64,000 bases of DNA from Candidatus Aminicenantes bacterium (GCA_026393855.1 JAPKZJ010000065.1:4560-68559), one strand, 5' to 3'. Numbered from the stretch's first letter, positions 36,924-45,249 are shown. Notes: generated from the sequence alone by a model not told the origin. A program made the numbers and translations.

Positions 36924-36951
36924 TTGACCAAGGAATTCGATATGATATATA
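36924..36951 (+). promoter_or_regulatory. candidate sigma70 promoter TTGACC-N16-TATATA (or N18-TATAAG) for the tusA-dsrE-hydrogenase operon
   Basis: Hexamers read from the sequence in an AT-richer 424-bp gap. Followed by a leader of about 170 nt with TTATCC direct repeats flanking a GGCGCG...CGCGCC palindrome (37071..37115). Confidence 0.4.
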
Positions 36952-37127
36952 AGTGCGCTGGGAATTAACTGCGGCGGCCGTTGCGGCCGGAAAGCCGAGA
37001 CCGGATTGGTCAGACTCGGACATCGCCATTCTTGGTTCATCCCCGCGGTGCTCCGCCCTGCGTCCCGATGTTATCCCTTGGCGCGGCGATCGTCGCGCCT
37101 TATCCAAATCTATCCGGAGGATCAATC

Positions 37128-37367
37128 ATGATCGATGTCGTCGCTCATCAAACGGCCGATTTCAGCGGCCTGGCCTGTCCGATGCCCATCATCAAGACCA
37201 AGAAAGCCATTGACGGCATGGCCGTCGGCGAAGTCCTGAAGATGATCTCGACCGATCCGGGGTCCGTCAGCGACATCCAAGCCTGGGCCGCCAAAACCGG
37301 GCAGGAATTGATCGGCCACGAGGAAACCGGCGGCAAATATGTTTTTTACATCCGCAAAGTAAAATAA
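37128..37367 (+). CDS. tusA: TusA/SirA-family sulfur carrier protein
   Basis: GGAGG lies 7 nt before ATG 37128. Canonical LACPMPIIKTKKAI cysteine motif. 79 aa. Confidence 0.85.
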   Translation: MIDVVAHQTADFSGLACPMPIIKTKKAIDGMAVGEVLKMISTDPGSVSDIQAWAAKTGQELIGHEETGGKYVFYIRKVK

Positions 37368-37393
37368 TTTTCCATCCCAAAGGAGACGCCGAC

Positions 37394-37870
37394 ATGCCTG
37401 AAGAAACAAGCCGACGACTAGCCATCATCGCCCTGCACGGGACGATGGATCTTGCTTATCCGCCCTTCATCCTGGCCACGGCGGCGGCGGCCCTGGATAT
37501 GGAAGTGGCTATCTTTTTCACATTCTATGGCTTGGAGATCCTTAAAAAAGGAAAGGTCGATAAGCTCAAGGTGGCTTCGATCGCCAATCCGGCCATGCCG
37601 GTGCCCATGCCCAACATCATCGGCATGCTGCCCGGGATGACCTCCATGGCCACGATGATGATGAACAAGTGGATGAAGAAAGCCCACGTCGCCAAGCTGA
37701 GCGAGCTTCTGGCCACGGCCAAGGAGATGAACGTCCGCCTGATCGCCTGCCAGATGACGATGGACGTCATGGGCATCAAGAAGGAAGACCTCATCGATGG
37801 TCTGGAGTACGGCGGGGCGGCGACCTTTCTGGAGTTCGCCAGTCACAACGCCGTCACCCTGACGTTCTGA
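37394..37870 (+). CDS. DsrE/DsrF/DrsH-like family protein (DsrE3-like sulfur-transfer protein)
   Basis: LAIIALHGTMDLAYPPFILATAAAALDMEVAIFFTFYGL...VRLIACQMTMDVMGI...GGAATFLEF. 158 aa, conserved Cys in IACQ. Confidence 0.75.
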   Translation: MPEETSRRLAIIALHGTMDLAYPPFILATAAAALDMEVAIFFTFYGLEILKKGKVDKLKVASIANPAMPVPMPNIIGMLPGMTSMATMMMNKWMKKAHVAKLSELLATAKEMNVRLIACQMTMDVMGIKKEDLIDGLEYGGAATFLEFASHNAVTLTF

Positions 37871-43641: not shown

Positions 43642-43680
43642 GGCGCCGAAGACGATCGGCTGGGACGGACGGAACATAGG

Positions 43681-44160
43681 ATGAGCGGGCCCGATCGTGC
43701 CATTGTCCTTGGATTAGGCAATTTATTAAACCGGGACGAGGGCCTGGGCGTTCAATGCCTCGAGCCCTTACGGAATCGGCTCGGCTCCGTCGCCGGGATC
43801 GAGATCCTGGACGGCGGGGTTTTGGGCCTGGACCTGCTGCCGCTCGTCGAATGCGCCCGTGCGCTTCTCATCCTGGACGCTGTTGACGCCCGCAAACCGC
43901 CCGGAACCCTGATCGAGCTGACCGGGGCCGATATCCCCCTTTTCGGCCGGGCCAAGCTGTCTTGGCACCAGGTGACATTCCAAGAAGTGCTGCAATTAGC
44001 GGCCATGCGAAACCGGTTGCCCGAGCGTCTGCACCTCGTCGGAGTTCAGCCGGCGGACCTATCCATCGGCCTGGAGTTGAGCCCCGAAGTCGCGGCGGCC
44101 ATGCCGGCGCTCATCGAGCACGCGGCCGCCGTCTTGGCCGGGTGGGGATTTTATGGCTGA
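43681..44160 (+). CDS. hydrogenase maturation endopeptidase (HyaD/HybD/HupD family)
   Basis: VLGLGNLLNRDEGLGVQCLEPL...ILDGGVLGLDLLP...LLILDAVD. Confidence 0.85.
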   Translation: MSGPDRAIVLGLGNLLNRDEGLGVQCLEPLRNRLGSVAGIEILDGGVLGLDLLPLVECARALLILDAVDARKPPGTLIELTGADIPLFGRAKLSWHQVTFQEVLQLAAMRNRLPERLHLVGVQPADLSIGLELSPEVAAAMPALIEHAAAVLAGWGFYG

Positions 44161-44178
44161 AAGGCGGGAGCGAGAGCA

Positions 44179-45249
44179 ATGAGCGTTATCCGGCTGTTGG
44201 ATCTGGGGACGGTTCCCGCCGTCCGGTCGCAAACCTGCTATCACGCCGCCGCCGAAGTCCTGACGGAGGGAGGACCGGATACCATCATCCTGGTCAGTCC
44301 GGCTTCACCCTATGTCTGCGTCGGCTTCCATCAGGATGTGGACCGGGAGGTCGATCGAGAATACTGCCGGAGCCGGGGCTGGCCGGTCCTGCGCCGCGAG
44401 GTCGGCGGGGGAGCGGTCTATTTGGATGCCGGTCAAGTTTTCATCCAATGGGTCTTCCGGCCCGGATCTCTGCCGGCGTCCGTTGAGGATCGTTTCCGTC
44501 TTTTCGTCGATCCGATCGTTGAAGCCTACCGTGCTTTGGGCGTCGCGGCCGAATTCCGCCCGGTCAACGACATCCATGTCGCGGGCAAGAAGATCGGCGG
44601 CACGGGAGCGGCGGCCATCGGCCGGGTCGAGGTCGTGGTCGGAAGCCTGATGTTCGACTTCGACAAGGCCGCGATGGCTCGGGTTCTGAAGGTCTCCTCA
44701 GAGAAGATGCGGGATAAAATCATCCAAAACCTCGAACAGTATATGACGACCTTGCATGAACAGTTGGGCTTCCGTCCGGACCGCGGGACCATGGTCGAAG
44801 CCTATTTGCGATCCTGCGCCGGAGCCCTCGGGCGGGAGATCGTGCCCGGTTCCTGGACCGAAGCGGAGGAGCAGCGGGCCCGCATCCTCGACAAGACGTT
44901 TTTGACGACGGAATGGTTGGAGCCCCGGCGGGTTCCCCGGCGGCCGGGAATCAAGATCCACGAGGACGTCCAGGTTGTGGAGTCCGTCTTCAAGGCTCCC
45001 GGAGGGTTGATCCGGCTGACGGCCACGGTTTTGCGGGGCGAAATCGTCGATCTTTCGATTTCCGGAGATTTCACGCTGTTGCCCCGGGCCGCGGTCGCCG
45101 AATTGGAAACCGTTTTGCTTGGACCCAACCGGAACGCAGCCGATATCCGCCAAGCTGTAAAGGCGGTTTATGATAGGCTGCGAATCCAGTCGCCGGGGGT
45201 AAGGCCCGAACATTGGGAAGCCGCTTTAGCCGGCCTTCTCTTCGGATGA
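44179..45249 (+). CDS. lipoate-protein ligase (LplA family, LplA-LplB fused length)
   Basis: RREVGGGAVYLDAGQVFIQWV and HVAGKKIGGTGAAAIG match the LplA RRxSGGGAV and GxKxSGxA motifs. 356 aa. Last gene of the hydrogenase operon. Confidence 0.8.
   Translation: MSVIRLLDLGTVPAVRSQTCYHAAAEVLTEGGPDTIILVSPASPYVCVGFHQDVDREVDREYCRSRGWPVLRREVGGGAVYLDAGQVFIQWVFRPGSLPASVEDRFRLFVDPIVEAYRALGVAAEFRPVNDIHVAGKKIGGTGAAAIGRVEVVVGSLMFDFDKAAMARVLKVSSEKMRDKIIQNLEQYMTTLHEQLGFRPDRGTMVEAYLRSCAGALGREIVPGSWTEAEEQRARILDKTFLTTEWLEPRRVPRRPGIKIHEDVQVVESVFKAPGGLIRLTATVLRGEIVDLSISGDFTLLPRAAVAELETVLLGPNRNAADIRQAVKAVYDRLRIQSPGVRPEHWEAALAGLLFG

Follow-up and report, generated by a model that had tools for sequence, protein, structure and literature searches.

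The only physiological role reported for the Isp-type [NiFe] hydrogenase of Thiocapsa is H2-dependent sulfur reduction, and the enzyme (Hyd) has been reported to work reversibly (PMC10892978). The Isp2 subunit of Isp-type enzymes is listed in a 2021 review as a protein of unknown function (PMC8551704). The lipoate-binding proteins (LbpAs) associated with the sHdr pathway of sulfur oxidation carry, in addition to the lipoyl-lysine, two conserved cysteines near their termini that are absent from GcvH (Cao et al. 2018, PMC6067878). Here we describe a module in which parts of both systems lie together, found in 64,000 nucleotides (nt) of DNA from a Candidatus Aminicenantes bacterium (GCA_026393855.1; this whole stretch is referred to as the window, and coordinates are counted from its first letter). 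At 36924-45249 on the + strand, the genes of an Isp-type hydrogenase are bracketed by tusA, two dsrE-type genes, lbpA and a lipoate-protein ligase gene. We give about an even chance to the reading that a periplasm-facing Isp hydrogenase is coupled through Isp2 to a lipoyl-LbpA/sulfur relay, which would convert H2 and carrier-bound sulfur to H2S.

The module comprises ten co-directional genes at 37128-45249, spaced from a 4-nt overlap (isp1/isp2) to a 61-nt gap (Table 1). They had been proposed in a first-pass annotation made from the sequence alone, and their place, order, strand and spacing stood, as did the families when the proteins were assigned by Pfam and NCBIfam profile searches and by their best matches in the PDB; the motifs quoted at that stage were found in the translations (LACPMP, which contains CPMP, together with ESSK, RACGVC and DPCMACAIH). 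The assignment of the hydrogenase to the Isp type was likewise borne out. The best solved relative of HynL is 3MYR_B from Allochromatium vinosum (795 bits versus 700 for Salmonella Hyd-5, the best group 1d match, and 651 for E. coli Hyd-1), so that by PDB scores the large subunit groups with characterised Isp-type enzymes and not with other group 1 subgroups, and the order small subunit-isp1-isp2-large subunit is present here and in at least 70 related loci. The closest genome relatives of HynL come from metagenome-assembled genomes (MAGs) of Acidobacteriota/Aminicenantes, at 77-81% identity. Its C-terminal extension is 22 residues long, as the alignment with the mature 3MYR_B chain stops at His558.

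Isp1 and Isp2 also have the features of their namesakes, a membrane b-type cytochrome and an Hdr-like Fe-S protein with a CCG motif. Hydropathy analysis gave Isp1 at least four hydrophobic segments, and its H88, H101, H185 and H203 are invariant. Isp2 has two [4Fe-4S] motifs and one complete CCG motif, and scores below the cut-offs of all three of its NCBIfam matches (DsrK, 219 bits against a cut-off of 400; HmcF, 214; TmcB, 211). Its C-terminal domain aligns with HdrB, a domain that binds a non-cubane cluster, and the cluster cysteines are kept in 100% of 73 sequences except C259, which stands at 95% in the gammaproteobacterial group. In HynS, R17, R18 and the cysteines of the Fe-S clusters do not vary, and hydropathy predicts a hydrophobic C-terminal anchor at residues 335-353. 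A scan of hydropathy and signals placed an export signal in HynS only and picked out Isp1 as the only membrane protein; no signals or membrane segments were seen in Isp2, TusA, either DsrE protein, LbpA or the ligase.

Table 1. Features of the hydrogenase/LbpA module and of the region directly upstream of it
Feature	Position	Strand	Evidence
Promoter-like site TTGACC-16 nt-TATATA	36924..36951	+	Hexamers at 36924-36929 and 36946-36951; left edge of conserved module
5' leader, about 176 nt	36952..37127	+	GGAGG ribosome-binding site at its end, ahead of tusA
tusA, sulfur-carrier protein, 79 residues	37128..37367	+	PF01206, 89 bits; Cys17 in CPxP motif
DsrE2-like sulfurtransferase, 158 residues, putatively of the soluble DsrE2B type	37394..37870	+	DrsE_2 PF13686, 171 bits; Cys119
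DsrE3-like sulfurtransferase, 122 residues	37932..38300	+	DsrE PF02635, 66 bits; Cys20, Cys83
LbpA-type lipoate-binding protein, 148 residues	38315..38761	+	GCV_H PF01597, 92 bits; Lys74 in ESSK, Cys7, penultimate Cys147
hynS, [NiFe] small subunit	38787..39905	+	PF01058 and PF14720; TIGR00391, 412 bits; twin-arginine signal SRRDFVK
isp1, membrane b-type cytochrome, DsrM/TmcC/HmcE-like	39915..40592	+	NCBIfam TmcC, 111 bits, and HmcE, 90 bits, both below cut-off
isp2, cytoplasmic HdrD/DsrK-like Fe-S protein	40589..41863	+	PF02754 (CCG) and two Fer4 motifs
hynL, [NiFe] large subunit, 580 residues	41899..43641	+	PF00374 (NiFeSe_Hases), 739 bits; RACGVC, DPCMACAIH
hupD/hynD, maturation endopeptidase (HycI type)	43681..44160	+	PF01750, 88 bits; TIGR00072, 129 bits, above cut-off
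LplA-family lipoate-protein ligase, 356 residues	44179..45249	+	PF21948 (LplA-B_cat), 130 bits; putative fused C-terminal LplB-like domain; Lys138

Conservation of the module was examined in two surveys. The first used HynL as query with one genome per GTDB species and returned 80 loci; the second used LbpA as query against metagenome contigs and returned 60 loci with an LbpA of at least 59% identity, the linkage counts taking in those loci whose contig reaches far enough. The accessory set (tusA, both dsrE-type genes, lbpA and the ligase gene lplA) was carried by 43 of the 80 HynL-selected genomes, 31 of which have all ten genes and 28 of which keep them in the order of the window, and most of the missing genes are explained by contig ends. 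These carriers are Aminicenantes/Acidobacteriota, many Chloroflexota of Anaerolineae type (including Caldilineaceae, Promineifilaceae and Thermoflexales) and Melioribacteraceae. Independent gene calls gave the same order in a Calditrichia MAG, in a 1.95-Mb contig (L082, from ERZ25039489) and in the closest relative of the window (L149). Among the LbpA-selected loci, hynS follows lbpA in 56/56 and the DsrE3-like gene precedes it in 54/54, with tusA present in 40/41 and lplA in 23/23. The module is thereby known from more than 100 uncultured bacteria in four phyla, which agrees with the expectation of the first-pass annotation that tusA, dsrE, gcvH-like and lplA genes are kept beside the Isp hydrogenase. 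Clustering of the flanking open reading frames (ORFs) revealed no further conserved catalytic gene. Given the linkage across phyla and this lack of a conserved catalytic neighbour, the module is a discrete, self-contained and horizontally spread unit.

The recurrent neighbours are an HTH_17-PocR regulator gene upstream, in 21 loci outside the Aminicenantes, and, after the module in a few loci, hyp genes. In the Chloroflexota, Melioribacteraceae and Calditrichia versions the gene for this HTH_17 and PocR-sensor regulator lies directly upstream of tusA (for example at 393-1148 in L081). It also lies directly upstream of hynS in L037 (5806-6621) and L041 (6029-6793), the two loci scanned upstream among those with the hydrogenase genes and no accessory genes. 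The Aminicenantes window has no PocR regulator. A TauE/DUF1634 gene pair after lplA in L082 was considered as a sulfite exporter and dropped, as it was found in no other locus. The gammaproteobacterial Isp hydrogenases, whose HynL is about 62% identical, are without the accessory set. Two gammaproteobacterial loci nevertheless have an lbpA beside the hydrogenase, encoding LbpAs 44-48% identical to that of the window: L057 (3234-11716) reads hdrC-hdrB-lbpA-arsR-hupD-hynS-isp1-isp2-hynL, and L069 (3-8411) reads hynL-lbpA-arsR, followed on the opposite strand by genes for a rhodanese, two YeeE-type halves and NrfD.

Proteins of the type of the window's LbpA are named 'glycine cleavage system protein H' in public records. 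C7, K74 and C147 of this protein are invariant in 43 genome orthologues and 39 database relatives, with K74 aligning to the lipoyl-lysine of GcvH. An AlphaFold (AF2) model has the H-protein fold (mean predicted local distance difference test score, pLDDT, 85; template modelling score, TM, 0.75-0.87 to GcvH structures) and is less confident at both cysteine-bearing ends. The window LbpA is 44-52% identical to LbpAs of sHdr-type clusters. Among relatives outside the module with readable context, the closest (52% identity) belongs to a type I sHdr cluster (L142) in which hdrC1-B1-A-C2-B2 is followed by two lbpA genes and then by two radical-SAM genes, between which lies an Lpl ligase gene with a DUF116 domain; in another locus (L143), arsR and two lbpA genes are accompanied by this same set of lipoate-assembly genes. 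Relatives at 44-52% identity do adjoin hdr genes, whereas a search for hdrA/B/C beside the 60 close metagenomic relatives gave only weak matches (25-36%) to the hdrB/C probes, in L110, L111 and L137. Linkage to a hydrogenase is lacking in the six metagenomic relatives of 47-53% identity. In its sequence and its relatives the protein thus has the hallmarks of LbpA, and it is located outside an shdr cluster. That the GcvH-like protein is LbpA-like, as first suggested, is supported by the hallmark cysteines and by nearest outside relatives in canonical sHdr and lbpA/lipoate-assembly clusters; its identity as an ordinary GcvH was rejected on the grounds of these cysteines, the invariable linkage to hynS and the sHdr-type relatives.

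The ligase encoded at the end of the module has a counterpart of 100% identity at NCBI, encoded on a 72-kb contig of a Candidatus Aminicenantes MAG, and its K138 is invariant among orthologues. The matches of its C-terminal domain are below cut-off (PF10437, 21 bits against 24; NCBIfam LplB, 37 bits against 65). It shares 24-28% identity with the ligases adjoining lbpA in L142 (the sHdr cluster) and L143-L145 (lbpA/lipoate-assembly loci), and scores 101 bits against the NCBIfam LplAB model, the cut-off of which is 550. On these two grounds we rejected its identity as sLpl(AB), and the earlier listing of the ligase as an sHdr accessory gene was not upheld, as it belongs to a different LplA lineage: by sequence it is a putative functional analogue of sLpl(AB), not its orthologue. 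Variations on the lipoate genes were seen in other loci. In L149, lplA (16252-17305) is interrupted by a frameshift close to residue 235, which reflects an assembly error or else a pseudogene. In some Chloroflexota loci the module is followed by a gene for a second GcvH-like protein that lacks the LbpA cysteines: L033 (12370-19163; chromosome OY969938.1) has in addition one to three LplA-family ligase genes and, in this locus only, two radical-SAM genes (LipS1/S2-like), and in L034 (13838-15409) the second GcvH-like gene and one extra ligase gene stand at the end of a hyp cluster.

The reactive residues of the three sulfur carriers are conserved as well, with C17, P18 and P20 of TusA invariant in 38 orthologues, C119 of the DsrE2-like protein invariant among its orthologues and C20 and C83 of the DsrE3-like protein invariant in 41. 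The labels of the two DsrE proteins had originally been swapped. The 158-residue product of the second gene matches NCBIfam SulfCarrDsrE2 (180 bits, below the cut-off of 210) and has 2QS7 as its best PDB match, which makes it DsrE2-like, and the best PDB match of the 122-residue product of the third gene is 3MC3, the DsrE3A-type protein SSO1125, which makes it DsrE3-like. These subgroup labels follow the best matches alone and do not separate subtypes A, B and C.

Comparison of loci with and without the accessory set points to Isp2 as the subunit that interacts with it. Four Chloroflexota loci (L031, L037, L039 and L041) nest inside the accessory-positive HynL clade and have hynS-isp1-isp2-hynL-hupD, all five accessory genes being absent together. 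When HynL identity is held at 70-80%, median Isp2 identity is 64% (lowest value 55%) among accessory-positive loci and 48% (highest value 54%) when these are compared with accessory-less loci, so that the two ranges are disjoint. Because Isp2 identity drops in the absence of the accessory genes at equal HynL identity, Isp2 is the predicted point of contact. A strict search for Isp2 residues unique to accessory-positive loci versus both other groups returned none; a relaxed comparison, which provides a lead only, gave 26 positions that are conserved in accessory-positive loci and never in the four accessory-less ones, most densely at 131-300.

On the basis of these observations, we propose the following route. 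HynSL, predicted from its signal peptide to be exported by the twin-arginine translocation (Tat) pathway, would oxidise H2 outside the cell. The electrons would cross the membrane via two b haems of Isp1, as its four invariant histidines and its homology to DsrM/TmcC/HmcE suggest, and would pass to cytoplasmic Isp2, whose CCG motif is intact and probably serves as a thiol/disulfide site. The next electron acceptor, reduced by Isp2, could be the disulfide of the lipoyl group on LbpA, or else sulfane sulfur that LbpA holds between its lipoyl thiols and its terminal cysteines. TusA and the DsrE2-like and DsrE3-like proteins would, in analogy to the sHdr relay, load sulfane sulfur, or possibly thiosulfonate, onto LbpA, and the sulfur would be released as H2S; the ligase, judging by its family and its linkage, would keep LbpA lipoylated. 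In sum, H2 and carrier-bound sulfur would give H2S, with protons released outside and consumed inside, and the process may be reversible. Such a module would be a DsrC-free counterpart of the DsrMK/DsrC cycle, paralleling the action of DsrMK on the DsrC trisulfide. We infer that H2-derived electrons would reach a persulfide or lipoyl disulfide through Isp2, which fits both the topology and the co-variation of Isp2. More tentatively, and as a proposal that we put somewhat short of an even chance, lipoylated LbpA may be the physiological thiol/disulfide partner of Isp2, in which case this would be the first lipoate-dependent respiratory hydrogenase, one that reduces carrier-bound sulfane sulfur with H2 and conserves energy without DsrC, quinone or a molybdopterin sulfur reductase.

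We favour the coupling of the hydrogenase to a lipoyl-LbpA/sulfur relay in the reductive direction because of the conserved gene content and linkage, the topology, the invariant reactive residues, the co-variation of Isp2 and the sHdr-type LbpA, and because lbpA lies beside an Isp hydrogenase in L057 and L069 and the Thiocapsa enzyme is associated with H2-dependent sulfur reduction (PMC10892978). Several points weigh against it. The direction of electron flow is not fixed by sequence, and sulfur oxidation is the only setting in which LbpA is known so far. The operon has no conserved gene for a sulfur importer or for an enzyme that generates sulfane sulfur, the adjoining TauE gene being a single case, and sHdr, Dsr or lipoamide dehydrogenase may be encoded elsewhere in the genomes, as the survey covers loci. 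The gap in standard potential between H2 and lipoamide or sulfur is about 120-145 mV, which is tight for a fully electrogenic loop. The Isp2 co-variation is drawn from four loci, possibly representing one or two evolutionary events, and the existence of these accessory-less versions means that the hydrogenase needs no accessory set to function. No locus comes from a cultured strain: all 80 genome loci are from MAGs, and the protein clusters of four HynL sequences are without an isolate.

The same parts could also work in the oxidative direction, with LbpA and the sulfur relay acting as in the sHdr pathway and Isp2 and Isp1 taking electrons from dihydrolipoyl-LbpA or LbpA-bound sulfur to the quinone pool, like DsrMK in sulfur oxidisers. 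HynSL would then be a second, parallel donor to the same cytochrome b, making H2 and reduced sulfur alternative electron donors. This arrangement draws on the described part of LbpA, TusA and DsrE3 in sulfur oxidation (PMC6067878, PMC11094781). The sHdr cluster of L142 with its closely related LbpA, the lbpA genes that stand with hdrCB, rhodanese or YeeE genes by the Isp hydrogenases of L057 and L069, and the homology of Isp1 to quinone-interacting DsrM-type cytochromes fit it too. We nevertheless regard both the oxidative flow and the role of HynSL as a parallel donor as unlikely, for neither sHdrA/B/C nor another sulfane-to-sulfite enzyme was found among the scanned window ORFs or in the regions flanking more than 100 module loci, Isp2 carries just one CCG site and the lineages of the carriers are known chiefly for anaerobic fermentation. 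The flow might instead end in H2, from dihydrolipoyl-LbpA, itself reduced by some process in the cytoplasm, through Isp2 and Isp1 to HynSL, with H2 released outside and the reaction driven by the membrane potential at low H2 pressure. The carriers do inhabit H2-scavenged anoxic habitats, and the reported reversibility of the Thiocapsa enzyme would permit it (PMC10892978). Such a sink is improbable, however, to about the degree of the biosynthetic role discussed below or slightly more so: no enzyme that would generate the LbpA reductant (a 2-oxoacid or glycine system) is linked to the module, and the three sulfur carriers are left unexplained. Group 1 [NiFe] hydrogenases are, moreover, typically uptake enzymes.

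Two further explanations do without a redox link between Isp2 and LbpA. The carriers, LbpA and the ligase could serve the assembly of the hydrogenase or its cofactors, in the supply of Fe-S sulfur or in ligand building, and not be redox substrates at all. The accessory genes bracket the structural genes and adjoin that of the maturation protease, some loci run on into hyp genes and then a second GcvH-like/ligase pair, and the dithiomethylamine ligand of [FeFe] hydrogenases is built with the participation of lipoyl-H-protein. [NiFe] enzymes, however, have no dithiomethylamine ligand, both the gammaproteobacterial Isp hydrogenases and the accessory-less members of the clade mature without the accessory genes, LbpA bears the sulfur-carrier cysteines typical of sHdr LbpAs, and co-variation with the accessory set is seen for Isp2, not for HynL or HynS; we therefore consider a role in maturation improbable. 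That an ordinary glycine-cleavage H-protein, a housekeeping ligase and sulfur carriers came to lie beside a hydrogenase by chance would accord with the public annotation of LbpA, yet it is contradicted by the conservation data and we assign it hardly any weight. The 56/56 linkage in metagenomes and the recurrence in 43 genomes, spanning four phyla, the joint absence of the four upstream genes and the downstream ligase gene from accessory-less loci, the invariant LbpA-specific cysteines and the lack of gcvT or gcvP among the scanned ORFs of the window all stand against it.

The left edge of the module coincides with a promoter-like site. The first-pass annotation had taken TTGACC-N16-TATATA for the promoter of the operon; the site is present, and in L149 both hexamers and the spacer are identical to those of the window, but it is not significant by itself in a consensus scan, which did not list it and found 3 promoter-like sites versus 1.9 expected in the region. 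Scanning the region for consensus promoters and terminators gave nothing above chance, and an Rfam search of the 5' leader found no family at E<=1. Homology between the window and L149 begins at 36923, one base 5' of TTGACC, and the aligned block at 36923-41898 has 86% DNA identity. Across the larger interval (window 36923-48945, L149 5129-17302) the 8.3-kb module and a gene for a PKD/PLAT protein (window 45490-48945) occur in swapped order. Based on this swap and the point at which homology starts, the module behaves as a cassette with its own promoter region. In Saccharicenans-type loci (L005-L008, L044 and L056) a different conserved promoter-like motif takes the corresponding place, about 200 nt ahead of tusA, and reads by eye in the alignment TTGTAT, about 17-18 nt, GATAAT. 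A further promoter-like sequence, TTGACT-16-GATAAT (10/12 matches; 45266-45293), lies right after the lplA stop codon and before the 1218-residue PKD/PLAT ORF, which suggests that the PKD/PLAT gene may be a separate transcription unit. Between isp2 and hynL, 31 of the 80 genome loci contain a conserved ORF of 106 residues, which is also present in L081 (6484-6804), L082 (7378-7698) and L149 (13586-13916); it is weakly SpoIIAA/STAS-like (Pfam E about 2e-4, below cut-off), and the window is without it, with a clean 330-nt gap relative to L149 at 41863-41899.

The genes around the module, a purine permease and a GH3 hydrolase upstream and the PKD/PLAT protein downstream, are unrelated to it. A Pfam scan of 46 further ORFs of the window did not find hdrA/B/C, dsrA/B/C, gcvT/P or lipS1/S2, in keeping with the absences originally noted for hdrABC, dsrABC and lipS1/S2; 11 of the 46 matched no Pfam family (five of them at 168-4988), and the absence does not extend to these. 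The DsrC family had no match among the scanned ORFs, and neither LipT nor radical-SAM genes were found in the window. The five ORFs at 168-4988 are co-directional, encode 148-441 residues, have no Pfam match at E<=1e-4 and occupy the part of the window with the highest G+C content (about 0.67). Rfam and ARAGORN searches of the window yielded a single RNA gene, a tRNA-Leu (anticodon GAG) at 24705-24793 on the - strand.

In the literature searched, which included the key work on sHdr/LbpA, lipoate assembly, Thiocapsa, Sulfolobales and Caldithrix and left subscription-only literature outside the search, an Isp hydrogenase combined with LbpA, TusA, DsrE and a ligase is undescribed, in line with the first suspicion that no described system is wired in this way. 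All of the parts belong to known families; it is the wiring that is new, within openly searchable literature. The module offers a concrete and testable candidate for the physiological partner of Isp2, and takes LbpA and its sulfur relay beyond sHdr sulfur oxidation, their only described context in the literature searched, which hints at a further biological role for lipoate. If our proposal is true, lipoate would have a role in anaerobic sulfur reduction in Anaerolineae and Aminicenantes, which are among the most abundant bacteria of sediments and digesters. The hydrogenases of the module form a distinct sub-family of Isp-type enzymes in uncultured lineages abundant in anoxic habitats, lineages whose H2 and sulfur metabolism is usually deduced from hydrogenase class alone. 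Metabolic reconstructions miss the module because databases label its LbpA as a glycine-cleavage H-protein.

Compared with known systems, the module resembles the Isp-type hydrogenases (Hyn/HydSL, group 1e) of Thiocapsa, Allochromatium, Aquifex and Acidianus in its hynS-isp1-isp2-hynL order, Tat-exported small subunit, b-type cytochrome Isp1, Hdr-like Isp2 and a HynL closest to 3MYR. It differs from them in that tusA, dsrE, lbpA and lplA are all missing from the operons of the described members, whereas here these genes are fixed on both sides of the structural genes; in that its Isp2 is at most 41% identical to gammaproteobacterial Isp2; and in its hosts, which are Aminicenantes, Anaerolineae, Ignavibacteria-type and Calditrichia MAGs and not phototrophic or chemolithotrophic sulfur bacteria. 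With the sHdr-LbpA system (types I and II) it shares TusA, DsrE2-like and DsrE3-like proteins, an LbpA with the lysine and two cysteines, and a dedicated ligase, and its LbpA shares 52% identity with that encoded in a canonical hdrC1B1A-C2B2-lbpA cluster. Unlike that system, however, its ligase is of another LplA lineage, LipS1/S2 and LipT were not found in the window, and its only CCG protein is Isp2, which is linked through the membrane to the hydrogenase. As none of the sHdr core subunits (sHdrA, B1, B2, C1 and C2 or B3) was found in the scanned window ORFs or the module flanks, we have not classed the module as sHdr.

The remaining comparison is with DsrMK(JOP)/DsrC, Hmc and Tmc of sulfate reducers, whose DsrM/TmcC/HmcE and DsrK/TmcB/HmcF are homologues of Isp1 and Isp2, respectively. 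In those systems, as proposed here, electrons pass through the membrane to a cytoplasmic CCG protein that reduces a protein-bound di- or trisulfide on a flexible arm. The NCBIfam scores of Isp1 and Isp2 all lie below the cut-offs of these families, and the electron donor of the module would be a directly docked hydrogenase, not quinol or cytochrome c3. Unlike in DsrMK/DsrC, the candidate swinging-arm substrate is a predicted lipoylated H-type protein with a penultimate cysteine.

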